Source: Terriglobia bacterium
GTDB lineage: Bacteria > Acidobacteriota > Terriglobia > UBA7540
DNA: 64,000 nt
Direction: 5' to 3'
Assembly (NCBI GenBank): GCA_036278555.1
Contig: DASUKV010000083.1
Location: 1,073-65,072, forward strand
Position numbers and translations under genes: made by a program. A model generated the notes under the pieces. It saw only the letters and a list, made by a program, of their open reading frames with translations, did no database searches and had not been told where the DNA came from. Numbering within the stretch: position 1 is the first letter of the stretch; every line of letters starts with the position of its first letter. Of the stretch, positions 11,563-64,000 are shown one piece after another.

Positions 11563-12780
11563 ATGTATTACCAGACGTTATTTAACGGTGCGCTCGCGGG
11601 TGTCAACAGTTCGGGCCTGATGCCGGGAATTATCAAGATCGCGTCGGTGATCCTAATAATCAGCCTGCTGTATTCCGTCTACACCGCCTACACAGCGGGC
11701 GGCGATGTCAGGATCCTGGGAACAGCGGCGATCAAGTACCTGATCCTGGGCTTGGTGTTAGTGAACTATGCGGCAGCATTCGGGGACGTCAACAACATGT
11801 TCAACGGCGTGGCCAATTATATCGTGCACACAGGGCCGGGGATTAGGGATGTGTTTGAATCGTGGGGGCAACAGATCGCCCTGTACTGGCATAACTCACA
11901 CGGAGTTCTTGGAGTCCTTTCTTTTATTTACCACTTAGCAGGAAACGCCGCCGCCGGATTTACAGGCGCGATCCTGGTTGTCGTCGCTTTCCTTCTTTAC
12001 CGCATTGCGTACTTGTTGTTCGCGCTCTTCTACACGGTCTACGGGGCCATCCTTTACGTGTGCGGGCCGTTTGTGCTGGCGCTGATGCCGGCGACAGGGA
12101 TCGGGCAGATCAGCCGCACGTATCTGATCAACCTCATGATCTTCAATGCGTGGGGGCTTATCTATGCGATTTTATCCGAACTGATCTATGCCCTGCACAT
12201 GAGCGACGTGAATACGGTGCTGAGCAACGGCAGTTATCTCAACCTCACGGTCACAAATCCGATGGTGATCTTGGGGGTGGCCAGCCTCCTTTACGCGATC
12301 ATGATTGCGTTGATCCCCTACATCGCAAGCCGGATTGTGCGCGGCGATGTGGGCGGGACTCTGCTGACCGTCGCCGGCGCTGCGTTGACAGCGGCGACGG
12401 TTGCGGCAAGCGCCGCGGGCGCCGCGTTGATGGGAACAGGCGGCGGGTGGTCGTATGGGTCTCAGATAGCAGGAGGTGGTGGAAGTCATGGGGGCGGCGG
12501 GGGTGGGGGCGGACAGGGTGGTGGAATCAGCGAAGGCGCAGGCGGCAGAAGCGTTGATGCTTCGCAAAGCTCGTCGTCCACTCCCCCTCCGCCGCCTGCA
12601 AGCAGTTCAGGTAACGGAGGGGGACGGCGTGGCATTCCGCCGCCCTGGCAGCCCGGCTACAACATGCCCGGTCACCGGCCTGCCTTCAACTTCACACACG
12701 CCGCGAGCTGGTATGGAGGATATGCCGCTCGGGCTGTATATAACCGCATGAAAGGGAGCAGTGGCGATGAACAATCCTAA
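11563..12780 (+). CDS. virB6: VirB6/TrbL polytopic membrane protein
   Basis: Multiple TM segments, 'ILYVCGPFVLALMP' motif, Gly/Ser-rich C-terminal tail typical of TrbL. Confidence 0.78.
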   Translation: MYYQTLFNGALAGVNSSGLMPGIIKIASVILIISLLYSVYTAYTAGGDVRILGTAAIKYLILGLVLVNYAAAFGDVNNMFNGVANYIVHTGPGIRDVFESWGQQIALYWHNSHGVLGVLSFIYHLAGNAAAGFTGAILVVVAFLLYRIAYLLFALFYTVYGAILYVCGPFVLALMPATGIGQISRTYLINLMIFNAWGLIYAILSELIYALHMSDVNTVLSNGSYLNLTVTNPMVILGVASLLYAIMIALIPYIASRIVRGDVGGTLLTVAGAALTAATVAASAAGAALMGTGGGWSYGSQIAGGGGSHGGGGGGGGQGGGISEGAGGRSVDASQSSSSTPPPPPASSSGNGGGRRGIPPPWQPGYNMPGHRPAFNFTHAASWYGGYAARAVYNRMKGSSGDEQS

Positions 12781-13516
12781 GTCGAAACCAACGAATCCGG
12801 AGATCGCGTCGTACACAAAATACTACGAGCATGACGGGCTCTTACGAGCCTATGCGAATCGCGCGTGGCTTGCCGCCATTCTCTTTGGTGTGATTGCGCT
12901 CGGGTCATTTGCCTTTGCGGCCTACGTCCGCATGCAGCCGCCGACAGTCATTCGCGTCGACAAGGATGGCAATGCAACGGTGGTGGGAGGAGCTCGCATG
13001 TTGCCCCCGCATTTTCCCTCGGCTTTTTCTGCCGGTGACGCGAAGGCTGCCGCGCCCACTGATCTTGAAGGCAAGGCGCTGGTTCGGCGGTTCCTCGACG
13101 ACTACCTCATCTACACGCCGGATTCGGTTGACCAGAACTTTTCCGCCGCGCTGAATGTGATGACCGCTAATCTGCGAACTTATACGCTCAACAAGCTCCG
13201 CACCCAGGACATCGTGGGAAAGATCCAGCAGGACCACATCATTTCGGACTTCCGCATCCGGTCGATTGAGCACGTCAAGAACACGCCGGGGACATACATG
13301 GTTTTTGGGGTGAATGAGGTCCACCGGCTCATGGAGGGGACGGAGACTACGGACCGGATTGTGGGGCAATACACAGTGCGGCTGGTCGAGACGGCACGAA
13401 GCGACATGAACCCGAGCGGGCTGTTGGTTGGAGAGTTCAATGCTCAGGAGATGATGGGCCAGCGGGACACGAGCTTAGACCAGCAGAGCGCTTTCGACCC
13501 GGGAGGAGGGAACTAA
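12767..13516 (+). CDS. virB8: VirB8/TrbF family protein
   Basis: Single TM, 'PTVIRVDKDG' motif, NTF2-like body, C-terminal 'NPSGLLVGEF'. Confidence 0.82.
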   Translation: MNNPKSKPTNPEIASYTKYYEHDGLLRAYANRAWLAAILFGVIALGSFAFAAYVRMQPPTVIRVDKDGNATVVGGARMLPPHFPSAFSAGDAKAAAPTDLEGKALVRRFLDDYLIYTPDSVDQNFSAALNVMTANLRTYTLNKLRTQDIVGKIQQDHIISDFRIRSIEHVKNTPGTYMVFGVNEVHRLMEGTETTDRIVGQYTVRLVETARSDMNPSGLLVGEFNAQEMMGQRDTSLDQQSAFDPGGGN

Positions 13517-17240: not shown

Positions 17241-17275
17241 AACCCTGACGTTCTGCCGGGCAGTTGGAGGCCAAT

Positions 17276-18127
17276 ATGAAAGCGTTTCTGATCATTGTCG
17301 TGGTTCTCGCGCTCAGTCTGCCGCTATCGCTTTGGGCGCAAACTATTGAAACGCGCGCCTCGGGCGAGAGCCAGATCGTGCGCGTCCGAACCGCGCTCAA
17401 TCACCTTACGGTCATTCAACTCGCGGAGCCTGTCTTGTCGGTGGCGGCGGGAAGCGAAGCGTTCAAGGTTGAGTGGCGGGGCAACAAGGTGTTTGTCGAA
17501 CCGACAGAGGCAGGTGTCTCAACCAATCTCTTTATCTGGACAAAGTCAGGTCGCGAGAACTACGAGCTCGAACCGGCAGGCGCCGTCGCAAGCATGGACT
17601 TTGCGATTGACACCCCGGCGGCTGATCCTCCGCCAACGCCTAAACCGACGGCGAAAGTGAGAAGTTTTGGTGATCCGGTGAAGCTGGCCGCCGAGGCGAT
17701 GCTGGGAGGCACGCCCGTCCGGCAGGAGTGCTGGAAAGCACAGAAGCATCGCGTGCAGGTGTGCGTGCGCGACCTGTTTGAGCAGAAGGGCGAGCTCTAT
17801 GTCCGCTACTCGATTGAGAACGGAACGAAGAAAGTGTATCTCCCAGGAACGCCACAGGTCGTTCGGATTGAGCCAACCATTTCCGCTGCTGTGCTGGGAA
17901 GGCACGCCTACACGCAGTTGAGCGGCGAGGCGATGAAAAACCTGCGCGCTCACTCCGAAGCTTCGATGGCGGTTGTGGCGCACGAGGCGCGCACTGCAGC
18001 GGTCAAACCGGGCGAGGTATGCGTAGGGATGGTTGCCGTAAGACTGGATGGGCACACCCCGGCGGTCGTGAGGCTCGAATTCACGAACGAAGCCGGCCAT
18101 CCGGTTGCGGCCGAATTTGTGATGTAG
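17276..18127 (+). CDS. Second VirB9/TraK-like periplasmic T4SS protein
   Basis: Signal peptide; 'NHLTVIQLAEPVLSVAAGSEAFKVE...VFVEP...TNLFIWT' aligns by eye with 240..1283. Confidence 0.62.
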   Translation: MKAFLIIVVVLALSLPLSLWAQTIETRASGESQIVRVRTALNHLTVIQLAEPVLSVAAGSEAFKVEWRGNKVFVEPTEAGVSTNLFIWTKSGRENYELEPAGAVASMDFAIDTPAADPPPTPKPTAKVRSFGDPVKLAAEAMLGGTPVRQECWKAQKHRVQVCVRDLFEQKGELYVRYSIENGTKKVYLPGTPQVVRIEPTISAAVLGRHAYTQLSGEAMKNLRAHSEASMAVVAHEARTAAVKPGEVCVGMVAVRLDGHTPAVVRLEFTNEAGHPVAAEFVM

Positions 18128-19357: not shown

Positions 19358-19676
19358 TACAGCATCCCTGTTTGGAGCAACGCTCCTGGCAGTCGCAATC
19401 GAGTGCCCACTCCTGTGGTGGCTTTGGCACACGGTGCGATTTACGGCTGGTCCGGGCGCTTTTTACACCGGCGATTGGATGGGCCCGTTACTCCCCGAGG
19501 CCTGGCTCATCGGCGTTACCACTGCCATGATCCACCGTCTGGGACTTATGGTGTACGAGCGCGAGAAGATGCACATCCACCGCCGTCATTTCCGAAGGCT
19601 TGCGTACTCATTTATCGCGCTTGCTTCGGTCGAGGGGTGTCTCTTATGGATTCCACTGGCGCGGGTGATTCGATGA
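19341..19676 (+). CDS. Small 3-TM membrane protein
   Basis: ATG at 19341 after GGAGG; its stop overlaps the VirD4 ATG (ATGA). Confidence 0.55.
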   Translation: MRKKLDTASLFGATLLAVAIECPLLWWLWHTVRFTAGPGAFYTGDWMGPLLPEAWLIGVTTAMIHRLGLMVYEREKMHIHRRHFRRLAYSFIALASVEGCLLWIPLARVIR

Positions 19677-21466
19677 GAGCGCGCGAGGCGAATCAGGAAA
19701 CTGGCGTCTACGATGGCGCGTTTATCGTGGCTGCCGTTGGAGTAGCTCTCTTCATCGCCGTCTGGTACGTTGCCATCCACCGGTACCATCTCCTGGACAG
19801 CCAGTTCATCGAGGCACTCGGATATCTGGTTGTCCCGGCCACGGGCCTCGGGTGTCTAGCGTGGTTGATCCTCACGGGCCACTCGCGCCGCGAAAACGCC
19901 TGGCCGCACCCCTATCAGGTGATCTCTCCCAAAAAGGATGAACCCCTGGCGCGCGACGCCTGGAGAAAAGACGCAGTGGTGTTGGGTTATGACGTCCATG
20001 GCAAGCCGTGGCTGTGGCCCGACCGCATCCGGGTCATGCAGGGCCTGGTGCTCGGTTTGACGGGCATGGGGAAGACGACGCTCCTGAAGAACATCATTAC
20101 CCAGGACCTGATGCGGGTGATTGACACTCCTGAAGGGCCCAGGCGCATGCCGATCCTGATCCTGGACGGCAAGGGAGAGCGGAAGCTTTTCGAGGAGCTG
20201 CTGCCACACATCCACCACGCCGGGAGGCTCGGCGACCTGCGGGTCATCAATCCCTCCTGGCCTGACATCTCCGTCCGCTACAACCCCTTCCACTGCACCC
20301 AGGACGATTACATGCCGGTGGTGAACATGGTGTTTGGAAGCTTCAACCTGCATGACGAGTTCTTTGGCAAGCACCAGTTGAACTATCTGGCTGATATCGT
20401 GCGGGTACTGGTCTATACGGGGCACAAGTTCAACTTCTATGACGTCCTGGTGATGGCGATTGATCCGGAGGTGTTGCAGGAGCAGGTCGCAAAAGCGATC
20501 CACGAAACCACGCGCATGCCCAACATGACCCTGCAGCGGCGGCTGAACTTCGAGATGTCGGTCAAGAATCTGTACCAGTCCTTTCAGGACCGCGAACGGG
20601 TGCCAAAGATTCAGGGGTTGCTCAATGAGTGCATGACGTTCCTGGATGACGAGCTCTCGATTATCACCGGCCCTTACGAGGATCTGCTTTCGCTTGATGA
20701 GGTGATTGAGAAGGGGCTGATCCTGTTTCTCAGCCTGAACGTCAATAAGAACACCGAGCCGGTCAGAGCATTAGGCAAGATGCTTTTGCAAAACGTGCAG
20801 TTAGTCGTGGGCAGGCGGTACGAGGCTGACGACCCGCGCGCCGCCTGCCGACCAATGACTAGCATCATCCTGGATGAGTTTGCGCCGTTCGGCTACCAGA
20901 ACTTTGCTCACATCCTCCAGACTGCCCGCGGTACCAACACTTCGTTCCTGTTCTCCATGCAGAGTGTCCCGCAACTGCTGAAGGTCGGGCGCGGCTTCAA
21001 GGAAGATGTGACCTCGGCCGCCAACACCATCATTACTTTTAAGACGCATGACGAGACGACGGCAGACTTCTTCCTGCAGGCTTCGGCATTGCGCCCGGTG
21101 ACCAAGCGGACGCGGTCGGTGAGACGGGTGAAGTTCTTCGGGTATGAGAGGTATCGGGAGACGGGCGATGGAAGCGAGCGCGAAGATCTGGAGACGCGAG
21201 CGCTCGACTACCACATCAAGAACCTGCCGACAGGGCAGATCGAGTTGCTGATGACGGATGAGACGCAAGGCACTCTGCACACGACGCTGAGCGTTCGGCC
21301 TCCAGCGGACATTCGCGTGCCAGGCTTCGAACCGGAAGTCTTTCCGCGACTCACCGCGTCACGGGCCGAATCAAAGGATGGCGCGCACCTGCGGTTCAAG
21401 AATTTGGAGTTTGCGAGCCGGCACGGGCGGCGGGCAACTACCGGCTGGGGAGGGCGGGTGCAATGA
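19673..21466 (+). CDS. virD4: VirD4/TraD-like type IV coupling protein
   Basis: Two N-terminal TM helices, Walker A GLTGMGKT, 'ILDGKG', Walker B ILDEFA, 'QTARG...SMQSVPQL'. Confidence 0.9.
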   Translation: MRAREANQETGVYDGAFIVAAVGVALFIAVWYVAIHRYHLLDSQFIEALGYLVVPATGLGCLAWLILTGHSRRENAWPHPYQVISPKKDEPLARDAWRKDAVVLGYDVHGKPWLWPDRIRVMQGLVLGLTGMGKTTLLKNIITQDLMRVIDTPEGPRRMPILILDGKGERKLFEELLPHIHHAGRLGDLRVINPSWPDISVRYNPFHCTQDDYMPVVNMVFGSFNLHDEFFGKHQLNYLADIVRVLVYTGHKFNFYDVLVMAIDPEVLQEQVAKAIHETTRMPNMTLQRRLNFEMSVKNLYQSFQDRERVPKIQGLLNECMTFLDDELSIITGPYEDLLSLDEVIEKGLILFLSLNVNKNTEPVRALGKMLLQNVQLVVGRRYEADDPRAACRPMTSIILDEFAPFGYQNFAHILQTARGTNTSFLFSMQSVPQLLKVGRGFKEDVTSAANTIITFKTHDETTADFFLQASALRPVTKRTRSVRRVKFFGYERYRETGDGSEREDLETRALDYHIKNLPTGQIELLMTDETQGTLHTTLSVRPPADIRVPGFEPEVFPRLTASRAESKDGAHLRFKNLEFASRHGRRATTGWGGRVQ

Positions 21467-22251: not shown

Positions 22252-22808
22252 CAATCGTGTTGGTCGGCGTAACAGGTTTCGGCAGCGTATGGCGGCGAAG
22301 GTTCGGTAAGGACACCCATGACCCCGAACGCTTCCGGCGCGCGGCGTACTTTAACACGACCGGCATCATGATCGATGGCCGGGTGGTGCATCACCGCAAG
22401 ATTGCCGGGCATGTCAGGTTCAACGGTTTGGGCGGATTCAATCCTTACTATCCACAGCGCGCGGTGGGCGCCGTGTTCGAGTGCGATGAGCCGTGCGTAT
22501 GCAACGGACAGATCAAAGTGTTCTTCGGCCGCCGCCTCGCCCGACCGCAGCGGGCAGATTACTTTCTGGTGGTCATCCGGTCGGCAGAGTTCGGGCATGT
22601 GGATGTGGGAGCGCCAGCCTGGAAGTCCGATGGCTGCCTGCTCATTTCGTTCAGCGAGTATCATGACCAGCAGGAACTGATGCTGCTTGCGCCTCCGGAC
22701 GGATGGGTCAACATGAAGTCGGGACGCCTGGCATTACATTCTGACGTTGCGCGTCGCTGGAGCGCCAAGCTGCGTATCAGTGAAAGAGAAGACGGTGCGG
22801 TACTTTAA
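22248..22808 (+). CDS. Hypothetical protein
   Basis: GTGA-coupled to the upstream gene and overlapping the relaxase start. Confidence 0.6.
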   Translation: MTIVLVGVTGFGSVWRRRFGKDTHDPERFRRAAYFNTTGIMIDGRVVHHRKIAGHVRFNGLGGFNPYYPQRAVGAVFECDEPCVCNGQIKVFFGRRLARPQRADYFLVVIRSAEFGHVDVGAPAWKSDGCLLISFSEYHDQQELMLLAPPDGWVNMKSGRLALHSDVARRWSAKLRISEREDGAVL

Positions 22809-23559
22809 GGGTAGCATCAAGCTGAGTCTGGAGCACGACCATCCGATCCTGAACCAAACCCTCTACAGCGGCTTTGTCACTCAGGATCAGCTCTGGGAGT
22901 TTATGATGCGTGGTGGGCATGAGCTCAATCGCCGTTGTTTCAACTGGCGCGTCAAGCGGCTGGTCGACCACGGCTTCCTTAAGCGGCACGTTCTCTCGAA
23001 CGCCGCCCGTTCATTTGTGTACTCCCTGACTGAAGAGGGAGCCGAGGAGTTGGTGAACCTCCAAGAGTGCCATACCGCCGTGGTGGGATTTTACAATCGC
23101 AATGGCGATGGCGACCGGATGAGGCACGCGATCGATGTCAATGACATTCGGCTGACGCTGGCCCGGCGAGGCTTGCTCGCCGGATGGAAGTCCGATCTGG
23201 AAGTCAGATCGCAGAACGAGTTTACGAATTATGGATACGCCAAGGATTATGACGCGGTGGTTACTCTTCGCCTGGACGGGCAGGATGTACCGTTCGCTCT
23301 GGAGTACGAGCGGCAGGCCAAGGCGCGGGAACGGTATGTCGAGATCGCCGGTTTGATCCAGGGCGAGCGGCGTGTGAGCCGGTTCCTGTACCTGTTCCCG
23401 GAGTACCATCTGCTGTGGTTTGTGCATCAGTTTTTCCAGCACACGGACCGGAGGGTATATTTTGGAGTCTCGTGCGACTTCAAACGGGAGGTTATTTCAA
23501 CGCAGGTGGTTGACCCGGTGCTCCGGCACTACACCCTGGGCGAGGCGCTGCGCACATAG
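22795..23559 (+). CDS. MOB_C / Replic_Relax-type relaxase
   Basis: N-terminal wHTH-like region, 'RHAIDVND', and 'DAVV...ALEYERQAKARERY' matching the MOB_C D-xn-E-x-E-R-x2-K-x3-R-Y signature; downstream of VirD4. Confidence 0.78.
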   Translation: MRYFKGSIKLSLEHDHPILNQTLYSGFVTQDQLWEFMMRGGHELNRRCFNWRVKRLVDHGFLKRHVLSNAARSFVYSLTEEGAEELVNLQECHTAVVGFYNRNGDGDRMRHAIDVNDIRLTLARRGLLAGWKSDLEVRSQNEFTNYGYAKDYDAVVTLRLDGQDVPFALEYERQAKARERYVEIAGLIQGERRVSRFLYLFPEYHLLWFVHQFFQHTDRRVYFGVSCDFKREVISTQVVDPVLRHYTLGEALRT

Positions 23560-36069: not shown

Positions 36070-37125
36070 ATGACAACGCTTCCACTCGACCTAAGTCGCC
36101 AAAGCCCAGAAGCCAAGGCTTTCGAGGCCGGACTTCGCCTGCGTGTCGTCGGCCAGGATGACGCTATCCGGCGCTTGGCAGAGGTATATCAAGTTTATCT
36201 GGCAGGCTTGGCCGCTCCCGGGCGGCCACTGGCTAACCTGCTCTTCCTTGGTCCGACCGGTTCGGGCAAGACACGATTAGTCGAGGCCATGGCGGAGGCG
36301 TTGTTTGGCAACGCGCGCGCCGTGATCAAGATTGATTGCGCCGAGCTCCAGCACAGTCACGAAATCTCCAAGCTTATCGGCTCGCCGCCGGGCTACCTCG
36401 GGCATCGGGAAACACAACCGTTGCTCACTCAGGAAACCCTCGATCAGCACCACACGGAGAAATTGAAGCTGTCGCTGGTGCTCTTTGACGAAATCGAGAA
36501 AGCCAGCGACTCCTTGTGGCAACTGTTGCTGGGTGTACTGGATAAAGCCACGCTGACGCTGGGCGACAACCGCCGCGTGGACTTCTCGCGGACCGTGATC
36601 GTTATGACGTCGAATCTCGGGGCGCGGGAGATGGCGCGGTTGATGGAGGGAGGGATGGGGTTTCATTCGTGCGGGTGCGAAAGCTGCGAAGAATTGGATG
36701 CGAAGCTTGAGCGCACGGCGATCGACGCGGCCCGGCGGAAGTTCTACCCGGAGTTCATGAACCGGATCGACAAAGTGATGGTATTCCGCCCATTGGGCCG
36801 CGTGGAGTTGGAGAAAGTACTGGGTATTGAGCTGGCTCGAATTGGGGACCGGATCGCGGCCTCGACGAGCGGCCGTCCGTTTGTCTTCCAGTGCACGCCG
36901 GCGGCACGGGATTTCTTGCTCGCTGAGGGGACTGATCCCCGGTATGGAGCGCGTCATCTTAAGCGCACCCTTGAGCGCCATCTGGTGTTCCCATTCGCTA
37001 ACCTGATGGCGACGGGACAGATCGGCGAGGGCGAGGTGCTTGTGGCGGACCACGGTCCGTTGAACGGGCATCTTTCATTTGCCAAGCGGGCGTGCGAGGC
37101 GTTGGTACACGTCGCGGCCGCATGA
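36070..37125 (+). CDS. Single-NBD ClpA/ClpB-like AAA+ ATPase (D2 domain only)
   Basis: 'VVGQDDAI', GPTGSGKT, 'KLIGSPPGYLG', LFDEIEKA, 'MTSNLG', 'PEFMNRID', 'YGARHLKR'. Confidence 0.9.
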   Translation: MTTLPLDLSRQSPEAKAFEAGLRLRVVGQDDAIRRLAEVYQVYLAGLAAPGRPLANLLFLGPTGSGKTRLVEAMAEALFGNARAVIKIDCAELQHSHEISKLIGSPPGYLGHRETQPLLTQETLDQHHTEKLKLSLVLFDEIEKASDSLWQLLLGVLDKATLTLGDNRRVDFSRTVIVMTSNLGAREMARLMEGGMGFHSCGCESCEELDAKLERTAIDAARRKFYPEFMNRIDKVMVFRPLGRVELEKVLGIELARIGDRIAASTSGRPFVFQCTPAARDFLLAEGTDPRYGARHLKRTLERHLVFPFANLMATGQIGEGEVLVADHGPLNGHLSFAKRACEALVHVAAA

Positions 37126-40130: not shown

Positions 40131-40541
40131 GTGTCGAAATATTGCCAGATTGAAACGGTTTTGCGCGATGAGGAGTATCTCGTCGAGGCGCTTCGTGAAA
40201 TGGGCTACAAGCCGGAAGTGCATGCGGAGGGCGCCCAACTGAACTCCTATTACTCTGAGCAGGAAGCCAAGATCGCCCATGTCATCATCCGGCGACGGGA
40301 ATTGCCGGGAGCTTTCGGGGACATTGGTTTTGTGCGGCAGCCAGACGGCCAGTTGAGCAAGATCGGTGATGAACTGGACCGGCAATACGGGGCGCGATGG
40401 CTGGGCCGTGTGGAGCAGCTTTACAAGGAAAAGCAGACGCTGGCCACGGCTCGCGCCAAGGGATACATCCTCAAGAAGCGTGAAGTTGTGGAAACTTCCA
40501 CCGGGCAACAGGTGCGGCTGCAATTTGTGGTGCGGAGGTAA
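40131..40541 (+). CDS. DUF1257 (Ycf35-like) protein
   Basis: 'SKY..IET...D...L..AL.EMG', 'DIGF.R..DG', 'QLY......A..KGY'. Confidence 0.75.
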   Translation: MSKYCQIETVLRDEEYLVEALREMGYKPEVHAEGAQLNSYYSEQEAKIAHVIIRRRELPGAFGDIGFVRQPDGQLSKIGDELDRQYGARWLGRVEQLYKEKQTLATARAKGYILKKREVVETSTGQQVRLQFVVRR

Positions 40542-40544
40542 GCG

Positions 40545-40736
40545 ATGCCGGAAAAGACCATCACCATTACGATTGATGAGCAAGGGAGCTCGACGCTCGA
40601 TCTGGAAGGCTTCGTGGGCAAAGAGTGTGAGAAGGCGTTTGAGGACTTTCGGGGCGGCGACACCGTGAAGATGGAGCGAAAGAAGCCGGCGTATTGCACG
40701 AATCGGCAAGCTGAAGAGCAGAAGAGCCAACGGTGA
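40545..40736 (+). CDS. DUF2997 protein
   Basis: 'ITITIDEQG...DLEGFVGKEC'; adjacent to DUF1257. Confidence 0.75.
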   Translation: MPEKTITITIDEQGSSTLDLEGFVGKECEKAFEDFRGGDTVKMERKKPAYCTNRQAEEQKSQR

Positions 40737-40748: not shown

Positions 40749-41354
40749 ATGCTTCTTCATGCATTAATTCCAGCGAGCCGCGCCAATGGCCCCGGGCTGC
40801 GGGCGGTGGTTTTCTTTCAAGGGTGCGCGCTGGGTTGCAAAGACTGTTGGAACCAGGATTCGCATCCTTTCCAGGGGCCGGATCTTGCGGTCGAAGCTGT
40901 GGCTCGCGAGGTGCTTCGCGCCAACGCGGAACATTCGCTCGAAGGCGTCACGTTCTCCGGCGGCGAGCCGATGCAGCAGGCAGACAGGGTATTGGCATTG
41001 ATTCGAACCATCCGCCGCCATGCGCCCGCGCTGACTTTCGGCATGTTCAGTGGCTACTCGGAGCGCGAGCTTACTGAAGGTCGATATTCGGTCTGGAACC
41101 GGCAGATGGCTCTCGAGGAAAAGCGACGCCTGTGGGACGCAACCCGCACCCACCTGGACTTCGCCGTGCTGGGCCGCTTCAACCCGGCGCTGCCCGGCAA
41201 CGAACCGCTCCGCACCAGCCGAAATCAAGTTCTCCGCCTCTTCAGCGGCCGATACACAGTGCCCGATTTTGACGAGCAGCTTGTCGAAGTCCATATTGAC
41301 GACAACGGTCGCGCGGAAATCACCGGCTTCCCATTGCTCGGCCTGCCTTGGTAA
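40749..41354 (+). CDS. NrdG-like radical SAM 4Fe-4S protein
   Basis: 'NGPG.RAVVFFQGC.LGC.DCWN', 'GVTFSGGEPMQQ', 'FSGY', 'R.S.NQ'. Confidence 0.88.
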   Translation: MLLHALIPASRANGPGLRAVVFFQGCALGCKDCWNQDSHPFQGPDLAVEAVAREVLRANAEHSLEGVTFSGGEPMQQADRVLALIRTIRRHAPALTFGMFSGYSERELTEGRYSVWNRQMALEEKRRLWDATRTHLDFAVLGRFNPALPGNEPLRTSRNQVLRLFSGRYTVPDFDEQLVEVHIDDNGRAEITGFPLLGLPW

Positions 41355-41417: not shown

Positions 41418-42953
41418 ATGATCCGTTCGATGGAGGAGTTTGCGTCGGCGTTCCGCGCCGCGCGCAGCGTATCAACGCCGTTGGTGGCGATCCGCACGGC
41501 CGACCCGGCGAGCACAACCCGTTTGATAACGGATGCCGTCAGGCAGCATCGGCCGGTTCCCGGGGTCGTGGCTTGGGATGTCATGCGCGGCATGCGCGCC
41601 GTCAGCAAAGATGCCGGCGATGCCTTAGCACATGCGTTGGGCAATCGCGAGCCCGACGCCGTGGGGCCCGCCGACGCCTTGCTCGTGGCGCGGGAACTTG
41701 CGGAGGACGCTGTATTACTCTACGCAAACGCGCATCGGTTCTGGAACGAATCGGGCGTCATGCAGGGAGTCTGGAACCTGCGCGACGCCTTCAAGGTAAA
41801 TGGCCGGCTGCTGGTGCTATTCGCTTCGCCCGGCGCAACCCTGCCACCGGAGCTGGCACAAGATGTCCTGGTGCTGGACGAGCCTTTGCCGTCAGAGGAT
41901 CACCTGGAGCGCATCGTGACGGGAACATTTCACGACGCCGGCCTGGATGATCCGGATAGTGCGCTACTTGGCAAGGCGATCGATGCCTTGATGGGCCTGG
42001 CGGCCTTCCCAGCCGAACAGTCGCTTGCCATGTCGCTGGTCAAGGGCGCACTCGACCCGGAAGACTTGTGGGAGCGGAAGCGGCAGATTATCGAGCAGAC
42101 ACCAGGCCTCTCGGTCTGGCGGGGCGGAGAAACTTTTGATGATCTTGGCGGCCTCGATAACGTGAAGCGCTTTTTGCGGGCCGTGCTCGCGGGCGTCGAT
42201 CCGCCGCGCGTCATCGTTTTCATCGACGAGATTGAGAAAGCGTTTGCCGGGACCGGCACCGACCTCTCGGGTGTCAAGACCGAGATGGCAGGCACGATGC
42301 TCACCTGGATGCAGAACCACGAGGCCGATGGGACGATCTTCATAGGCCCACCCGGCGCAGCGAAGTCGGCAGCCGCGAAGGCTACCGGAAACACCGCCGG
42401 CATCCCCACCATCGCGTTTGATCTGACGGCGATGGAGAGTTCCCTGGTTGGAGCATCTGGCGACCGCTTGCGGACGGCGCTCAAGGTGGTGGAGGCCGTC
42501 TCGCAGGGGCGCGCGCTGTTTATCGCCACGTGCAATTCCATCACCAGCCTGCCGCCCGAGCTGCGGCGGCGCTTCACGCTGGGCACTTTCTTCTTCGACC
42601 TTCCCACGGCTGAGGAGCGTGAGGCGATCTGGGCGATCTATTTCAAGAAGTATGGTCTGTCCGGCGAGCTGCCGAACGACCAGGGTTGGACCGGGGCGGA
42701 AATCAAAGAGTGCTGCCGGAAGGCGTACCGGCTGGAGCTGAGCCTGGTGGAAGCCTCGCAGTACATCGTTCCGGTGTCACGCTCCGCCGCCGGGCAAATC
42801 AAGGCGTTGCGTCAGATGGCGTCGGGGAAATTTATCAGCGCTTCGAAGCCCGGCGTCTACCATTACGAGGAAGAAACCCCGCCACCGCCGCGCCGGATGA
42901 TCCGGTTGAACGAGCCACTCACGGTCCTTCCACCTCCGCGCACCGAGGCGTGA
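41418..42953 (+). CDS. Ycf46-like AAA+ ATPase with swapped Walker B / Walker A segments
   Basis: Inactive N-terminal AAA-like domain, then FDDLGGL, FIDEIEK (about 42225), GPPGAAKS (about 42345), IATCN, LPPELRRRF, FFDLP, WTGAEI. Confidence 0.85.
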   Translation: MIRSMEEFASAFRAARSVSTPLVAIRTADPASTTRLITDAVRQHRPVPGVVAWDVMRGMRAVSKDAGDALAHALGNREPDAVGPADALLVARELAEDAVLLYANAHRFWNESGVMQGVWNLRDAFKVNGRLLVLFASPGATLPPELAQDVLVLDEPLPSEDHLERIVTGTFHDAGLDDPDSALLGKAIDALMGLAAFPAEQSLAMSLVKGALDPEDLWERKRQIIEQTPGLSVWRGGETFDDLGGLDNVKRFLRAVLAGVDPPRVIVFIDEIEKAFAGTGTDLSGVKTEMAGTMLTWMQNHEADGTIFIGPPGAAKSAAAKATGNTAGIPTIAFDLTAMESSLVGASGDRLRTALKVVEAVSQGRALFIATCNSITSLPPELRRRFTLGTFFFDLPTAEEREAIWAIYFKKYGLSGELPNDQGWTGAEIKECCRKAYRLELSLVEASQYIVPVSRSAAGQIKALRQMASGKFISASKPGVYHYEEETPPPPRRMIRLNEPLTVLPPPRTEA

Positions 42954-43116: not shown

Positions 43117-44034
43117 ATGGCTACAGCACCCCTGATCTTTGATCTTCAAACGCCCGGAGACGACCTGGCTCGCAAGACCGTTTTCGTCAAGCTTCGCCTG
43201 GGCCTGCTGGGCAATAGCCGTAAGGTCAGCCCGGCTCAAGTCGAAGTCGACGCCGACAAAGCCTCTATCCATGTGTCCAAATCCCTGCTGAATTCTTGTG
43301 AGCTTGAGGCCATTCGCCGGCTTGACGGCGAGATGCGCCGGTACTTGTACGGCGTCTGCCTCCCGTTCGAGCCCGGCATTCACCTGCTTCCGATTCCTTT
43401 GATCGAAACGGTGGACAGCAGGCTGCGTGAGTTTCAGGGGAAGCGCCAGGAGTTGGTCGAGGTGTTTCTGGCTGCGTACCCGAGGCTTTGCGAAGAGGCT
43501 GCCAGCAGGTTGCGCACGCTTTACAATCCGCTCGATTACGCTGCGGTTGAGGAAGTCCGCTCGGCCTTTTCCTGTTCGTGGCAATACGTCAGTTATGGCG
43601 TTCCAGACCAGCTTCGCGCCGTCTCGGAACGGATGTTCCAGGAGGAACGCGACAAGGCAGCGGACCGTATGGCCGAAGCCTACACCGAAGTCCGGCAGGT
43701 GTTGCGGGAGGCGATGGCCGAGCTGGTGGCCCATTTGCGAGACCGGCTCGCCGACCAGCCAGACGGCACGCCACAGCGGGTGCGCGAATCCACCGTCCAG
43801 AAACTGAGGGAGTTTCTGGATACGTTCGATTTCCGCAACGTGACGAACGATCAGGAACTGAAGGACCAAGTCGAGCGGGCACGAGGGTTGTTGGCCGGAA
43901 CAACGACGGACGCAATCCGCAACACGGCGGAGTTGCGGGTAAGGGTAAGGGACGGCATGGCGAATATTGCCGGGCGTCTCGAAACGATGGTTTCCGATCG
44001 GGTGGGACGGAAGTTCCGCCTTGACGAAGCGTGA
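43117..44034 (+). CDS. DUF3150-like helical protein
   Basis: 'SKSLL', 'G..LLP', 'F...YP', 'YNPLDY...EVR..F' then a helical C-terminus; RBS GGAGG. Confidence 0.65.
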   Translation: MATAPLIFDLQTPGDDLARKTVFVKLRLGLLGNSRKVSPAQVEVDADKASIHVSKSLLNSCELEAIRRLDGEMRRYLYGVCLPFEPGIHLLPIPLIETVDSRLREFQGKRQELVEVFLAAYPRLCEEAASRLRTLYNPLDYAAVEEVRSAFSCSWQYVSYGVPDQLRAVSERMFQEERDKAADRMAEAYTEVRQVLREAMAELVAHLRDRLADQPDGTPQRVRESTVQKLREFLDTFDFRNVTNDQELKDQVERARGLLAGTTTDAIRNTAELRVRVRDGMANIAGRLETMVSDRVGRKFRLDEA

Positions 44035-49078: not shown

Positions 49079-51325
49079 TTAGCTCAGGATCGGCGGAATA
49101 GAAGCTGCGAAGGACTCGAATCTTTTAGAAAGTGACGGAGATGCGGTAGTGAGAGCAAGGGAGTGCGCGAAGTGGGTGAAAGGTTGGAATGCCTTCTCCA
49201 GCGCCTCCTGGTAAGCCTCGTCGTCGTAGCCTCTCCAGGCTTCCCACAGAGTCCAGGCGCGAACCCGGTCATCCAGTAATTTGGAGTGGACATCGGTGAT
49301 GATGAACTGGATGTTTTCACCAGGCCGTACCTGGACGCCAGCGCGGTCGAGTTGCCGGGCAACGATAGCCGTCAGATTATTCTTCTGATAGTCCTTCGGG
49401 GAGCGAGTCAGCCGTCGGCTGATCACCAGTTCTTCAGGCGCAACACTGCACTCGATCAGCCGGGCAAGATATTGTTCGCAGACTTCGCGCGCCTCGTCAA
49501 GTTTCGCGCAATAAGACTCGAAATCCCATGCTTCTGCCAGAACAGCAAGCACCTCCCGCTGCATCCGGGCGACCAAGGGCGGTGTGTCATGGCGGCGGCA
49601 TTCGAGACCCCTGATCTTAATTTCGCCACTTTGGGATACCGCGAAAAAGCGATTCGGTACCGGAATCTCAGCGTCCTGCTTTGAGGGCAGGAAAACAACG
49701 TAGCGATAAACTGCTTCAACGGCCAGCGGTAGGTTGGTCTTCGCCTCGATCTGCCGGGCGAGCCGTTCGTAATCTTCGCCCGTCGCTTCAAGCTTCTGGA
49801 CGTAGAGCGAATCCACTAACGCATGGAGCACCCGGTAACCGGACCCTTCCGCCGTCTCCTTGGCCACCAGCAGTTGTTCTCGCGCCATCGCATTGATGGC
49901 TTCATGGGCTTCGATCTTGCCGAAGCGGGCGTTCTTATAGCCGGTGTAGCCAAAGCAACAAACTAAAAGCCATTTCAGCGCGTCGCGCCGCAGTTTGTAT
50001 TCCTCCGCATCATGATCTCTGGCTTGCTGTTTATAAAGCTGGCGCTTTTGAATCAGGCGTTCCACGACCCGGCTGGTAATTCCGCGCCTGCGCTGGCAAA
50101 CCCGATAGCCCAGTTCGGGGATCCTTGGTCCGTCCGGACAGCAACCGCAATTGACCGTCTCGGGCGAGATATTGAATGTTGCCATGATGGTCGGGTACTC
50201 GCTGATGAAATCCAGCTCCGCAACGTTCTCAAAGAAGCCCGGACGTGGGGCAAAGACCAGTCCACCCCGGTCCGCCGCCAGAAGCTCATCGGGATGCTTG
50301 GGATTCTCGGGCTCGGCCTTCTGTTCGGGAATCAGCGTCCCGTCCTTATAGGCCAGCTCCATCTGCATGTAGGAAATGCCCGTGCCGGTCGTGGTCCGGG
50401 CGGCGTATTGAATGGGGAGTTTGGTCACGCGCGCCAGTTCCCACAAGCCGTCCAACTCGCACTGGCCGGCAATGAAGGAATTCTGTGTGTCGATATGAAG
50501 CCTGCCAAAGAGGGTGCTGGCGCTTTCTTTGAACAAGATGCGCCCGTAGCTCATATAGGTCCGTGCTGCGCTGTGCTGGACAGGCGCCTGATCGCGGTTG
50601 AGGGAAAGGCAGATATCCCTCTTGGCTGCCTGCCGGAACAGTAGGGGGAACAGCACCGCGTCTCCCCACTCGCTTAGGATGATGTCAGGGTCGTGCGTCC
50701 GCAGCAGGCGCTCGAAACTTTCCACAACGGGTTCATCCGCATCCTCTAGCACCCGCCACTCTCCGTCGATGGCAATCTCGATGGCTCCCTGGCGTCCATG
50801 CTTGGGGTTCACACGGCTGAGCCCTTCCAGACGAATCTGCATGATTCGCAGAGGCGGCAGATCATAAGTCGTAGACCATTCATCATCATCGCAGGCAAGC
50901 GAACTGATTTTGCCAGCATCGTTCACCTCGGCGCTGACGCGGCCAAGCGGAAAAATTCCTTTCTCCCAGCAATAGACGGATGCAAGCATCAAGTCGGAAT
51001 TGTAAAGCCGGAGGCTGGCGTCAAACCGGCGCACAAAGCGGGCGAGAGTTGAAAACAGCAGCAGGTGATAAACCGTCACCTGCAACACTCGCAGCGGCTG
51101 TCCGTCCCAGATGCTGGCTCTTTCTTTGAGCGCGCAATGAGCTGGGAATCTTGCCTCAATCGCTTGCGCCAGGCGGGAAAGCCGGGTCTCGTGCCCCTGC
51201 ACGTAGAAGCAGGGTCGGAATGACCGGTCAATCAGACGATGGTGTTTTCCGTTCGCTTCGATCAGCCACAGCGCCATCCCTTCGCGGCAGGGGCAGAGGT
51301 CGAGAATCCATCCATTGAGTTTCAA
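49079..51325 (-). CDS. B-family DNA polymerase, PolB2-like
   Basis: 'ELDFISEYP.IM..FNISPET', 'LKWLLV.CFGY.GYKNARFG.IEAHEAINA', 'HALVDSLYV', 'IRGLE.RRHDTP'. Probable TTG start at 51325. Confidence 0.9.
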   Translation of the reverse strand: MKLNGWILDLCPCREGMALWLIEANGKHHRLIDRSFRPCFYVQGHETRLSRLAQAIEARFPAHCALKERASIWDGQPLRVLQVTVYHLLLFSTLARFVRRFDASLRLYNSDLMLASVYCWEKGIFPLGRVSAEVNDAGKISSLACDDDEWSTTYDLPPLRIMQIRLEGLSRVNPKHGRQGAIEIAIDGEWRVLEDADEPVVESFERLLRTHDPDIILSEWGDAVLFPLLFRQAAKRDICLSLNRDQAPVQHSAARTYMSYGRILFKESASTLFGRLHIDTQNSFIAGQCELDGLWELARVTKLPIQYAARTTTGTGISYMQMELAYKDGTLIPEQKAEPENPKHPDELLAADRGGLVFAPRPGFFENVAELDFISEYPTIMATFNISPETVNCGCCPDGPRIPELGYRVCQRRRGITSRVVERLIQKRQLYKQQARDHDAEEYKLRRDALKWLLVCCFGYTGYKNARFGKIEAHEAINAMAREQLLVAKETAEGSGYRVLHALVDSLYVQKLEATGEDYERLARQIEAKTNLPLAVEAVYRYVVFLPSKQDAEIPVPNRFFAVSQSGEIKIRGLECRRHDTPPLVARMQREVLAVLAEAWDFESYCAKLDEAREVCEQYLARLIECSVAPEELVISRRLTRSPKDYQKNNLTAIVARQLDRAGVQVRPGENIQFIITDVHSKLLDDRVRAWTLWEAWRGYDDEAYQEALEKAFQPFTHFAHSLALTTASPSLSKRFESFAASIPPILS

Positions 51326-51575
51326 GGTTAATCCCCAGGCGCGCCTCGATAGCGCGCAGCCGAATTTCATGGTCAAGCCCGATGGCCACGTTGATCGCGT
51401 CCATGGCATTCACCGGGAACTGGTAAGTGCAAGCTTGAGAAAACAAGCGAACCCGGTTGAACATCGAATCCAGGTACGCCCTTTCCTCCTGACGAAGCGC
51501 GCGGCCAAAAACACGCTGCCAGCTTTGCAACTCCTGCTCAATCAGATCACGGAAGGTTGCTACCGTACGTCCCAT
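51228..51575 (-). CDS. Small PolB2-partner protein (PPB2 / arCOG07300-like)
   Basis: 'MGRTV.TFR..IE.E...W...F.RALR.E.R..LD.MF'; overlaps the polB start. Confidence 0.8.
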   Translation of the reverse strand: MGRTVATFRDLIEQELQSWQRVFGRALRQEERAYLDSMFNRVRLFSQACTYQFPVNAMDAINVAIGLDHEIRLRAIEARLGINLETQWMDSRPLPLPRRDGAVADRSERKTPSSD

Positions 51576-60475: not shown

Positions 60476-62683
60476 CTAGCCTGCTGCCTCGATGGCCGCC
60501 GCGACATCGATAGCCAACTCCTCGGCTCGCCACAGGGCGCCGCGGATTCTCGTAACTTCCAGTTCTCTAGATGCGATTTGGCCAGCAGGCTCGCCCCTTC
60601 CTCTGGCGGCAGCAAGCTCTCGTTCGTGACTCGACAGCATCCGTCGAAACATGGGAGCTGCACTCTTCTTCGGTTGCGCATGGACACACCCCAGACAAAC
60701 CAGGCCCCGCGGGCAATGCTCGCCGGTAGGCAGCGCGCATAGGTGCGTGCCCATATCGCGCATCCCGCAACTCGCTGTGAAGGTGGCCCATTCCTCGGCA
60801 GTTGGATTGCGTAGACTCTCCTCTCCATGAAAGGCGATATAAAGACCACGCACCGCCTTTCGATACTCCTCGACCATGGTTTGCGGATAAAGCTTGGCGT
60901 AAACCATAACGGTGTCGATTGAGGCGTGGCCAAGCAGCGCCTGGATTACGTGTACCGGGGTGTTGTTGTTGAGATGTTCGGAGGCGAACACCCGGCGGCA
61001 GTCGTGTGGATGCAACTGGAGCGCAGTGCCATCCGCCTTGCGTAGGCCAGCTGCTGCCGATAACAACTTCAGGCGAAGGCGAATTCCCTCCGGACCTAGC
61101 GGACTCGGATGTCTGGGTGCTTGCAGCAAGTAGGGAGCACAGGGCAGCGCGCGCTTTTCGTGATAATCCCAGTGATCGCGGAAGGGTACAGCATCCGCAC
61201 CATAGAAGGCCTTGACATGTCGAATGATCTCCGCGATCACTCGGCCCAAACCATCCCCGATCGGGATCACCCGCGCTCGGTCGTACTTCGATGGTTTGAC
61301 GTGCAGCATATAGTAAATGTGTCCCTCCGGCGTGTGACGTTTCAGAAGGTCGAGGGTCGTTAGTTCGGATGCTTCCTCAATTCGGAGGCCGCTCTGGACC
61401 AGCAGTTCCAGTAGAGCCCAGTCCCAGAAGGCATCCGCTTCCGCCAACTTACAGCGGGCGCCCGCTTGAGCCGCACTGAGAGCGCTCTCTGCTTCGCGCC
61501 AACGCCGGAAGGCCAGTGCGCGAATGTTCGGCATCTCGCGCTCCAGATCGAGAACAAGAGCAGTCATCCGTTTCATCTGTTGTTTTCGGGCCTTGTTGAA
61601 GCCGACTCCCAGTAAGTCGTGTCGGGTCAGCGGAACCGCCCGAGGAGCAAAGGATGCGAGGGGAGAATCGGGCTCGGCAGCCCAAGCGCAGAGGTCGTTA
61701 AAGAACGTGCGAACGTTCACGAGCCAAGCATGTGCCGTGAGACGCACCGCCGCTTCGTCACGGTTTTCACCGTGCTCCACTTCGCGAGCACGCTCAATGG
61801 CGTAGGGAATATAGGCTCGGCCATGAACAGGGAGTACGTCGGCGGGATTGGTGACTTCCGCGTACCGTTGTGCAAGAAAGCGCCAGAAATGACCGAGTGA
61901 GCTCACTTTCTCCTGCAGAGTTGAATAGTGGTCGCTGATACGCGTGCTATACGTTTCCAGGTAGAGAATCATAACGGGCCTAAAATCGTCCGGCATATTC
62001 GCCATGGCAACCAGCTCCGCGATAGTTTGACGGCCACGCCGAAGGCGACGGGCCGGTGCGCGTTGCGGAGTTCGGGCAAACACTCGCATCGAACAGAGCG
62101 CAGTATCTAATATGTCCGTGCCGAGGGATGCGGCAGGGATGGCGTTCAAATCCTGCTCGAGAATCTCGGCCAGGGAGTTATAGCCGTGAACCATTAGAAT
62201 GCGAACACCCGTGCTGATGGCGCGATGCTGACCATTCGGGCTTGCCCAGGAAATCGCCCTGACAACTTTCGCGAGGCGGTCATGCTCCTGGAGAAGTAGA
62301 TCATCCTCAGGCAGGCGGGCGACCCATCTCACCAGGTGGACCCTGGAAAGCCAGTCCCAGCTAGGAAGCACGAGGCGGGCCATGACGACGACCCGAGCGC
62401 CCCACATCCAGCGGGCGGTGGGACGTCGTTCTTGGCCGGCCATCCATTTGGGCCATACAGTTCGTTCGAAACTGTCCCACCGCTCTTGTAGGGATTGCCC
62501 GCCACAGCCGTCCAGCGCGTCAACCACATCCTTGCAGCCGGACTTTAAGCGGTACTTGTCGCCTCTCGTGAACCGGAGGGACTGAATAGCTGTGTTAAGA
62601 TGCTTTAGCAATTCACCGTGTTCGTATAGTGCTCTCCCCAGATCTGGGATGTGGTATATCTGCGGACTCCGAATCGTTTCCAC
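60476..62683 (-). CDS. Large tyrosine recombinase (Tn554 TnpB-like)
   Basis: SGLRIEE, PSKYDR, HPHDCRR, LLGHASIDTVMVYAK; Cys-rich C-terminus C...C...C..C. Confidence 0.9.
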   Translation of the reverse strand: METIRSPQIYHIPDLGRALYEHGELLKHLNTAIQSLRFTRGDKYRLKSGCKDVVDALDGCGGQSLQERWDSFERTVWPKWMAGQERRPTARWMWGARVVVMARLVLPSWDWLSRVHLVRWVARLPEDDLLLQEHDRLAKVVRAISWASPNGQHRAISTGVRILMVHGYNSLAEILEQDLNAIPAASLGTDILDTALCSMRVFARTPQRAPARRLRRGRQTIAELVAMANMPDDFRPVMILYLETYSTRISDHYSTLQEKVSSLGHFWRFLAQRYAEVTNPADVLPVHGRAYIPYAIERAREVEHGENRDEAAVRLTAHAWLVNVRTFFNDLCAWAAEPDSPLASFAPRAVPLTRHDLLGVGFNKARKQQMKRMTALVLDLEREMPNIRALAFRRWREAESALSAAQAGARCKLAEADAFWDWALLELLVQSGLRIEEASELTTLDLLKRHTPEGHIYYMLHVKPSKYDRARVIPIGDGLGRVIAEIIRHVKAFYGADAVPFRDHWDYHEKRALPCAPYLLQAPRHPSPLGPEGIRLRLKLLSAAAGLRKADGTALQLHPHDCRRVFASEHLNNNTPVHVIQALLGHASIDTVMVYAKLYPQTMVEEYRKAVRGLYIAFHGEESLRNPTAEEWATFTASCGMRDMGTHLCALPTGEHCPRGLVCLGCVHAQPKKSAAPMFRRMLSSHERELAAARGRGEPAGQIASRELEVTRIRGALWRAEELAIDVAAAIEAAG

Positions 62684-63974
62684 AACGTCCTCCTGGTGCC
62701 GACCTCGACTGCGTGGCGGCCTTCTCGAGCTCCTCGATCGTTGTCTGGTCGTAGGCAAAGGCATAGCGCACCTCGGCGGGTCGCTCGGTCGGTAGAATGC
62801 CACTTGCTTGGCTCTTTGTGTGATCGAAGGTGGATTTCACGGCCCTCACGGCCTTTACCAAGGCGTCGTGATCGACGTGCATGTACAGGTCTGCGGTGGT
62901 ACTTATTTGAGCATGGCCAAGAAGTTCCTGCGCCACTTTCAGGTTTCCAGTCGTTTCCATCACTGCTTGTGCCAGGGTGTGGCGGAATAGGTGAGCATGG
63001 ACGCTGATCCCTGTCTTGCGGCTGACGTACCGCAAGGAAGACTCAAAGGCAGTGTACGTGAGGGGCTTGCCTTTGCCTCTGCGCAAGCCCAACCAAGCCG
63101 CTGGGGTTGCCGTGGTCGTACCGCGCTCTTCTGCCAAGTAGCGATGGAAGAGCGGCCAGAAATCTTCGGTCACCGGCACTCGGTGTTCGTCCCGATCGCC
63201 CTTGAGACGCACGGTGATGGTCCTACGTCTCTCGTCGATATCGGTCAAGACCATTCCCAACACTCCATGCCTTCCGGCAACATCACTCCAGTCGCCAATG
63301 CGTTGTGCTGTACGGAAGAGCAGCGTGAGGATAGACTTGTCGCGATAGGAAACGGCGGTGCCGATGAGCTGCTCCGCCAGGAATGGGTCCAGCGTCTGGT
63401 GAATCTCTCGGGGCACGCGCCGTCGAAATTCCCCGGCCCGTCCGCGAGGTGGTCGGTCTCGACCCGTTAGGCCATGACGACCGTCAGTGCCGACGGCGGC
63501 GGAAATGGGGTTATCCCGTTGGAACCATGCGCCGCTGCCGCGGTCTTGATCCTGTCGGATCCGGAAGGTGAAATACGAGGCCAACACGCTGAGGCGGTGA
63601 TTGATGGTACGGGGTCGCCGCCCCTCGTGGGATGAGCCCGTTCTGCCATCTTTCTCGACGGGACTCGGTTGCGGGACACGCCGACCACCAGGGTGATACT
63701 TCGGGGTGCGGCTGAAGGCGGCGATGTATTGCTCCACGACGTGGCGCCTCGTGTCGTCCACTCCCTTGCCCGATTCGCGCAACCAACCAAAAAAGTGGGC
63801 AAGCGCGGTTGCATAAGAGTGCAGCGTATAGGCGGAGCGTCCACAGGCTGCCAGGTAGAGCAGAAACTCATTGATCTCGGCAGCGGGAGCGCCATCAGCG
63901 CCTCGAACCTGGAAGGGAGCAAGAGCCGTCGGAGTCCTTTCAACTTTGAAGGAAGACATAGCGACATCATACAT
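62613..63974 (-). CDS. Tyrosine recombinase (Tn554 TnpA-like)
   Basis: N-terminal SAM-like 'S.YTL.SYA..L..FF.WL', TAQRIGD, LKGDR, HAHLFRHT, LLGHAQISTTADLYMH. Confidence 0.9.
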   Translation of the reverse strand: MYDVAMSSFKVERTPTALAPFQVRGADGAPAAEINEFLLYLAACGRSAYTLHSYATALAHFFGWLRESGKGVDDTRRHVVEQYIAAFSRTPKYHPGGRRVPQPSPVEKDGRTGSSHEGRRPRTINHRLSVLASYFTFRIRQDQDRGSGAWFQRDNPISAAVGTDGRHGLTGRDRPPRGRAGEFRRRVPREIHQTLDPFLAEQLIGTAVSYRDKSILTLLFRTAQRIGDWSDVAGRHGVLGMVLTDIDERRRTITVRLKGDRDEHRVPVTEDFWPLFHRYLAEERGTTTATPAAWLGLRRGKGKPLTYTAFESSLRYVSRKTGISVHAHLFRHTLAQAVMETTGNLKVAQELLGHAQISTTADLYMHVDHDALVKAVRAVKSTFDHTKSQASGILPTERPAEVRYAFAYDQTTIEELEKAATQSRSAPGGRCGNDSESADIPHPRSGESTIRTR

Positions 63975-64000
63975 GTCGGCGAGTACCCGAGGGCGGCCTC

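Follow-up and report, generated by a model that had tools for sequence, protein, structure and literature searches.

An internally permuted Ycf46-like AAA+ ATPase with Walker B ahead of Walker A in an integrative conjugative element

The locus and the order of the ATPase motifs

The window, by which is meant the whole stretch of 64,000 nucleotides analysed, is an integrative conjugative element from position 7089 to position 64000. The genes assigned within it are as follows.

7089-9899, VirB4-like gene
12761-13516, VirB8
17264-18127, CagX/VirB9-like gene, match below the cut-off
19403-21466, coupling protein
22747-23559, Replic_Relax relaxase
26668, RNase H
28742, AEP primase
37092, DnaN (clamp)
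40131..40541, + strand, DUF1257 gene (Pfam)
40545..40736, + strand, DUF2997-like gene, 63 aa (phrog_23133, E 4e-4; no Pfam match)
40749..41354, + strand, NrdG-like radical SAM gene (profile match)
41418..42953, + strand, internally permuted Ycf46-like AAA+ ATPase gene P0001, 511 aa (PF00004, HMM blocks, phrog_8638)
43117..44034, + strand, DUF3150-family gene (Pfam PF11348)
about 45130, SSB
49079-51409, - strand, family B polymerase
52433, Gp3-like recombination factor
56645, ParB
60476-62803 and 62613-63974, - strand, tyrosine recombinases

The ATPase lies in a module with the gene order DUF1257, DUF2997-like, radical SAM, AAA, DUF3150. An iterated profile of the 63-residue DUF2997-like gene found an ORF of the cultured phage Tunturi 3 that carries PF11211. 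Related modules were present on contigs C97, C121, C4 and C129 of the same genome. The window also encodes, at 2791-4932 on the left end of the element, a Cdc48-like AAA ATPase of two modules, each collinear with the normal-order profile, and a stand-alone AAA protein resembling the second module of ClpB (36070-37125; AAA_2 and ClpB_D2-small, with no first module) beside DnaN, with copies 68-70% identical on contigs C264 and C152.

The open reading frame of P0001 is preceded by the Shine-Dalgarno-like sequence AAAGGAG and was divided into the following parts.

41418..42122, + strand, degenerate N-terminal AAA module, aa 1-235 (predicted secondary structure, strand ladders, motif counts, fold matches)
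42132..42191, + strand, FDDLGG motif and helix alpha0 of the active module, aa 239-258 (predicted secondary structure, HMM)
42207..42326, + strand, relocated block B, aa 264-303: beta3 with Walker B (D270, E271), pore-loop-2 region, helix alpha3 (HMM 299-341)
42327..42503, + strand, block A, aa 304-362: beta1, Walker A GPPGAAKS (K316), alpha1, beta2, pore loop 1 (LVG), alpha2 (HMM 240-298)
42510..42854, + strand, aa 365-479: beta4 with sensor 1 (N373), shortened second region of homology (SRH) with R384-R385, beta5, helical lid with sensor-2 position A427 (HMM, conservation, coupling)

The first-pass annotation had placed at 42130..42620 an AAA+ core in which Walker B precedes Walker A. The motifs were found at those positions, and the gene itself starts ~710 bases further upstream with a degenerate first AAA module. 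All four blocks that had been listed were present, in the order given, in a single open frame on the + strand (ORF 41418-42953): FDDLGGL at aa 240-246, the Walker B block VIVFIDEIEK...MLTWMQ at aa 264-303 with the DE codons at 42225-42230, GPPGAAKS at nt 42345-42368, and sensor 1 N373 at 42534 followed by R384-R385 at 42567-42572. The description of both Walker motifs as essentially intact holds for their presence and needs one correction, namely that an alanine precedes the Walker A lysine.

A reference HMM was built from 124 normal-order Ycf46-like proteins, comprising plasmid and phage relatives and 120 homologs of the nearest one. This profile matched P0001 as four separate blocks with the middle two swapped: aa 19-256 with HMM 11-233 (E 9e-40), aa 264-303 with HMM 299-341 (E 6e-11), aa 304-362 with HMM 240-298 (E 4e-18) and aa 365-479 with HMM 342-458 (E 1e-36). 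The out-of-order local matches that the first-pass annotation had expected from alignment to a Ycf46-like profile were thus obtained, block B (HMM 299-341) standing before block A (HMM 240-298). A single collinear match was obtained with all 124 of the 124 normal-order controls, a result that is partly by construction since the same proteins built the HMM. Phrog_8638 likewise matched P0001 (E 4e-45) in four stretches versus one in the normal-order control, and an alignment to VAT from the PDB search was out of order, with query residues 265-311 on VAT 381-429 and 304-369 on VAT 321-385. The swapped blocks abut almost exactly, with almost no residues lost or duplicated, and the GG motif lies a median of 128 residues from sensor 1 in permuted versus 131 in normal-order proteins. 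At the level of sequence, the arrangement is shown to be a non-circular swap of two adjacent blocks, equal to a circular permutation of an internal segment of ~100 residues only, and the permutation of the P-loop core proposed earlier is borne out by the four-block mapping. That the swap is real is virtually certain.

Distribution of the permuted form and origin of the swap

The order of the blocks in relatives was determined by HMM mapping, as regex motif counts missed some of the more distant proteins. The gene is present in the genome in three full copies (100, 88 and 85% identity), all permuted. A search for homologs of the same order had been proposed, and the closest homologs proved not to be canonical, block B preceding block A in 121 of 121. 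Among distant representatives (42-60% identity, plus the phage protein) the same order was found in 137 of 151 and the canonical order in none; 14 of the 151 were unclassed owing to a weak B match, inteins or, in one case, a deletion. Viral loci were permuted in 80/80 when chosen by the lid motif and in 80/80 when chosen by N-module motifs alone, the latter choice being independent of block order with patterns taken from permuted members, and the two sets overlapping. An intact permuted gene was present at 79 of 80 metagenome loci, the copy at the other (L167:5617-7536) being split by a stop, and gp103 of Tunturi 3 has the same Walker B-first order at 44% identity. The named hosts are Acidobacteriota. 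The family contains at least 205 permuted sequences less than 62% identical to each other; of the 1,321 clusters matching at E 1e-30 or better, the analysis covered the best 150. A search of the phylum in which three candidates were scored per genome gave the permuted form in at least G000 and G084 and a match of any kind in at least 14 of 401 genomes. A viral scan with the phage protein alone as query found nothing, and no RNA datasets carrying the gene were listed among the sequencing runs.

An assembly artefact or a one-off rearrangement could give the same appearance, and the source genome is incomplete and fragmented (83% complete, 474 contigs). The check for misassembly relied on Logan contigs from four runs of four studies, soil and cave among them. 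All 30 bins of the gene were covered and no joint was listed inside it; the first junction lies within contigs of runs X1 and X5, the second and third within one contig of run X3, while no single contig of those runs spans the whole gene. Against an artefact also stands the order itself, common to hundreds of independent sequences and a cultured phage. The artefact reading is already refuted by the family, and its probability is negligible.

Several irregularities were observed among the copies. At nt 42315 the window has A (Asn300) versus G in the contigs of all four runs, and both paralogs have Asp; the difference, which lies outside the motifs, is a private variant or a consensus error. In P0221 (273 aa) the N module runs directly into beta4 of the active module, the whole stretch from one beta4 strand to the other being deleted along with both Walker motifs, possibly by recombination at equivalent strand starts or by assembly error. 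A second partial gene copy was present within a few kb at metagenome loci L168, L169, L171, L174, L179 and L192.

In FastTree trees comprising 42 normal-order and 205 permuted rows the order changed once, whether the unswapped parts alone (support 100) or only the two blocks (94) were used. Since permuted members were collected by their similarity to the query, a single origin refers to the sampled family only. The swap probably arose once; the simplest route, we infer, is that the beta1-alpha3 segment was duplicated in tandem and the outer halves were then lost. A duplication intermediate or duplicated Walker motif was not found among 735 sequences, a weak negative in that the top matches were ranked by total score.

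Predicted fold and active site

The N module (aa 1-235) has the normal strand order and neither the Walker A lysine nor the Walker B acids. Its coevolution ladders were b1-b4, b3-b4, b2-b3 and b1-b5, and its fold matches were the AAA domains of clamp-loader and Rca. For the whole protein, a first AlphaFold model from 43 close rows was of moderate confidence (pLDDT 73.9) and a model from 150 diverse rows reached pLDDT 95.9 and pTM 0.90. A monomer prediction had been suggested as a check, with a model lacking an assembled ATP site to count against the permutation; the prediction obtained was confident and did not refute it. The elements predicted along the chain are alpha0, beta3, alpha3, beta1, alpha1, beta2, alpha2, beta4, alpha4, beta5 and the lid. 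The best fold matches were classic-clade AAA motors, including NVL (Z 16.3, rmsd 5.6, 403 aligned), spastin (Z 15.9, rmsd 3.0, 204 aligned) and FtsH (Z 15.3, rmsd 2.6, 186 aligned); the sequence relatives in the PDB were the distant p97, VAT and Msp1 only. No permuted AAA stood out among solved structures searched with Foldseek and VIA-align.

Strand neighbours were evaluated by coevolution in 439 rows, a modest depth with an effective number of 245 for about 250 columns. The four top ladders joined the Walker B strand to beta4 (2.03), the Walker A strand to beta5 (1.66) and to beta4 (1.64), and the Walker B strand to beta2 (1.40), each value being reached by 1.5-4.5% of random segment pairs. 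The N module, serving as normal-order control, gave the same four-ladder pattern. Strong single couplings fitting the ordinary AAA arrangement were V265-S362, F308-F393, I272-A370, L246-A315, W297-E359 and K287-E340. Overlap with the couplings of the normal-order set, which is underpowered at an effective number of 48, was weak: 16 of the top 100 lay within one residue versus 5 by chance, and among the top 50 the number was 6, no higher than the largest null value.

These data bear on an alternative in which the fold follows chain order, with the Walker B strand in the beta1 slot, or in which the blocks are domain-swapped between subunits, in either case with altered active-site geometry. Some members keep a P-R-G motif, normally ahead of beta1, ahead of the Walker B strand, as a chain-order fold might have it. 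The ladders expected from chain-order packing were nevertheless at background (0.88-0.95, reached by 15-18% of random pairs), and couplings of Walker A with beta5 (F308-F393, A314-F393, P311-L395), of alpha0 with alpha1 (L246-A315, V249-A319) and of alpha3 with alpha2 and beta4 (W297-E359, W297-F368) were those of a normal AAA domain. A domain swap would be compatible with the monomer model, coevolution being blind to cis versus trans contacts; the shortness of the new linkers and the confidence of the monomer model along its whole length argue against it. Altered geometry by either route is quite unlikely. The preferred reading is a normal fold: the wiring is changed and the shape is likely not, because the ladders and couplings fit the ordinary arrangement. 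A five-stranded parallel sheet with helical lid is predicted to be kept, as judged by both the model and coevolution, and the spatial order is probably beta2-beta3-beta4-beta1-beta5 as in ordinary AAA domains. The canonical sheet order is also the basis for judging which new connections reach neighbours. The earlier view that the rewired helices would lead to neighbouring strands holds in part: coevolution favours the order beta2-WB-beta4-WA-beta5, in which two of the three new connections reach a neighbouring strand, and the alpha0-to-Walker B link skips beta4.

Of the features that define the AAA+ superfamily, a Walker A lysine with Ser/Thr, a Walker B acidic pair, sensor 1 and an arginine finger are present. 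The chain order of Walker A, Walker B and SRH is not that of the superfamily; Walker B comes first and the SRH still follows both. Across the 439 family rows the catalytic residues were nearly invariant: K316 (100%), S/T317 (100%), D270 (99%), E271 (100%), N373 (100%) and R385 (100%), while the residue before the Walker A lysine was Ala in 54%, as in the present copy, and Gly in 29%. Purifying selection was indicated by a dN/dS of ~0.1 overall and 0.01-0.10 within the swapped blocks, as calculated from the three genome copies. Pore loop 1 was usually LVG with no aromatic residue (405/534 rows), and LVG is common to normal-order relatives too. The spacing from sensor 1 to the arginine finger was 12 in 539/594 permuted versus 14 in 135/141 normal-order sequences; the SRH of permuted members is two residues shorter and mostly has adjacent RR versus the RxxR of normal-order proteins. 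Intein-like inserts occupied three different sites: two in Walker A (P0173, P0205), one of them right after its lysine, and one at sensor 1 (P0123), one insert scoring above the Pfam cut-off for inteins and two just under it. Inteins tend to occupy essential motifs.

The top coupling in the active domain was R384-A427 (z 20). R384 was present in 91% of the 439 rows, and the two positions exclude each other: R384 only in 399 rows, R427 only in 38, both in 0 and neither or gaps in 2. On a tree of 263 rows built without those columns the toggle changed 22 times, and 15 of 15 independent pairs were concordant (p 6e-5). The pattern points to one phosphate-contacting arginine that may be supplied either in trans (R384) or in cis (R427), and the mutual exclusion therefore suggests that the ATP site lies at a subunit interface. 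Further couplings indirectly fitting neighbouring subunits, in addition to R384-A427, were T387-R434, E302-K430 and V260-Y437.

A protein bearing these motifs might nonetheless be a decoy with weak catalytic activity or none, which binds nucleotide or poisons the AAA rings of the host. The carriers are phages and mobile elements, and about half of the family has a non-consensus GxxGxAKS Walker A. The invariance of the Walker B Glu, sensor 1 Asn and arginine finger speaks against a decoy, as does the strict one-arginine rule, which implies selection on the phosphate-binding site; in addition, no normal-order Ycf46-like copy was found in the present genome at 83% completeness. A decoy is very unlikely, and a normal three-dimensional site with, by inference from the conserved residues, an active ATPase is highly probable.

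Gene neighbourhood, proposed function and significance

DUF3150 was the steadiest partner of the ATPase, present at 10/12 genome loci, 76/80 viral loci and 42/79 metagenome loci, the last often short, and at 56/80 loci of a second viral set with shorter flanks. The radical SAM gene accompanied mainly cellular copies (10/12 genome, 48/79 metagenome and 4/80 viral loci). Normal-order relatives had the same DUF1257, DUF2997 and DUF3150 partners, in 2 to 4 of 17 mostly short loci, and the swap therefore occurred without obvious change of job. On the Pseudanabaena plasmid pPg_01 (L018:1496-7440) a normal-order AAA/DUF1257/DUF2997 module comes after grpE and a gene for Hsp70, which hints at a role as chaperone. 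On a Treponema plasmid (L019:4360-8584) a normal-order relative has a 4Fe-4S gene on one side and a phage baseplate V gene on the other.

A permuted ATPase that is active and folds normally could likewise serve in replication, for example in loading or remodelling a DNA-protein complex with the sliding clamp or SSB of the element. Its module has DnaN, SSB, AEP primase, RNase H, family B polymerase and the Gp3-like factor around it; at metagenome loci SSB was within the flank at 27/79 and DnaN at 6/79; and replication ATPases are favoured by inteins. Beside viral copies, by contrast, SSB (0/80 in one set, 1/80 in the other) and DnaN (0/80 in both) were nearly absent while DUF3150 stayed, and the fold neighbours of the active module were protein-remodelling classic-clade motors. 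A replication role is accordingly considered unlikely. The reading preferred here, with a probability of roughly 60%, is that P0001 is a two-module Ycf46-like AAA+ protein, likely a ring-shaped ATP-driven protein remodeller acting for the mobile element with DUF3150 and having a predicted normal ATP site. That a ring-shaped remodeller works with DUF3150, DUF2997 and DUF1257 is put at slightly better than even odds.

In the mechanism proposed, the strands would keep their usual places in the sheet so that a normal ATP site forms, and the rewiring would be confined to three loops, all at the strand-start edge of the parallel sheet and away from that site. ATP would bind at K316/S317, with E271 and N373 positioning the attacking water and R385 of the next subunit acting as arginine finger. 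The second arginine would come in trans from R384 or, in a smaller part of the family, in cis from a sensor-2 arginine at position 427. A hexameric ring is envisaged to thread protein substrate past the LVG loop, the degenerate N module serving as a scaffold or adaptor tier and the DUF3150, DUF2997 and DUF1257 proteins, judged from gene linkage only, as adaptors or substrates.

The nearest known proteins are normal-order Ycf46-like two-module AAA proteins, represented by phrog_8638, WDT82709.1 (Ca. Manganitrophus plasmid), WP_281009472.1 (Pseudanabaena pPg_01) and AHC30467.1 (Rhizobium phage L338C). These share with P0001 a degenerate N module and one active AAA module, homologous in every segment, as well as DUF1257/DUF2997/DUF3150 neighbours and the LVG pore loop. 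The permuted proteins differ in having the Walker B block ahead of Walker A and RR in place of RxxR and in forming a separate clade; their mean identity to the normal-order proteins is 23% over the N module and 35-42% over the active one. Classic-clade motors (p97/Cdc48, VAT, NVL/Rix7, FtsH) were the best sequence and fold matches among solved structures, but their matched sequences all have Walker A before Walker B; in contrast to p97, the family has no p97-type substrate-binding N domain and a sensor-2 arginine in about 9% of members only. Most members have Ala at sensor 2, as AAA proteins generally do according to the available part of PMC5039278. The same part of that source gives an extra arginine directly before the arginine finger as a mark of the meiotic clade (Vps4, spastin, katanin), and R384 of the family fits this description; spastin and Vps4 were also among the top fold matches. 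The family departs from the meiotic clade in its permuted core and in the absence of a MIT domain, Pfam giving PF00004 only and the N part being an AAA module. Since it also differs in its two-module architecture and its descent from Ycf46-like proteins, the RR motif is likely convergent. Two further assignments were rejected: the anti-phage ATPase IteA (NF042959) matched only aa 358-439 with 24.7 bits versus a curated cut-off of 510 bits, and CDC48 membership was ruled out on score.

Natural reordering of catalytic motifs with the three-dimensional site kept has precedents. In circularly permuted P-loop GTPases of the YlqF/YawG family the permutation rotates entire ends and leaves Walker A ahead of Walker B, and permuted DNA methyltransferases were reportedly treated by Bujnicki in 2002, in a paper that PMC10853773 cites. 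Unlike the YlqF/YawG GTPases, the present proteins have two internal blocks that trade places while the ends of the domain stay put. To our knowledge, P-loop NTPases are taken to have the two Walker motifs in a fixed order, A first and B second, and every annotation profile incorporates that order. Pfam recognized only half an AAA domain in P0001, with positions 2-54 of the PF00004 profile on aa 307-359, and because profiles assume the Walker A-first order the family is labelled 'AAA family ATPase' or 'hypothetical' from such a half-domain match. The literature searched, the main texts of openly accessible papers, gave no account of an AAA+ domain in which Walker B comes first. The word 'permuted' in the available parts of PMC7824862 and PMC10853773 refers to methylases, the words 'ATPase', 'Walker' and 'AAA' do not occur in the available main text of the Tunturi paper (PMC11924767), and DUF3150 was found in one paper of the literature searched.

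The results establish a real and well supported topological variant of Ycf46-like AAA+ ATPases. A broader view is held at about even odds, namely that these proteins are an old and large family of functional AAA+ motors, carried by phages and ICEs and of undescribed topology, in which an arginine moves freely between trans finger and cis sensor-2 positions and which would power a four-gene machine (AAA, DUF3150, DUF2997, DUF1257) that remodels proteins of the host or of the element when a new cell is entered. One family would then sample both AAA+ active-site designs. The repeated exchange of finger and sensor-2 arginines is a natural experiment on a feature separating AAA+ clades. An internal swap under purifying selection, which would surprise a specialist on AAA+ proteins, means that connections along the strand-start edge of the sheet can be rewired in an AAA+ core. 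The family thereby offers a direct test of beta-alpha unit shuffling in P-loop evolution and of whether the coupling of ATP to pore-loop motion depends on chain connectivity, and the presence of the gene in a cultured phage with a cultured host (Tunturi 3) makes it testable.
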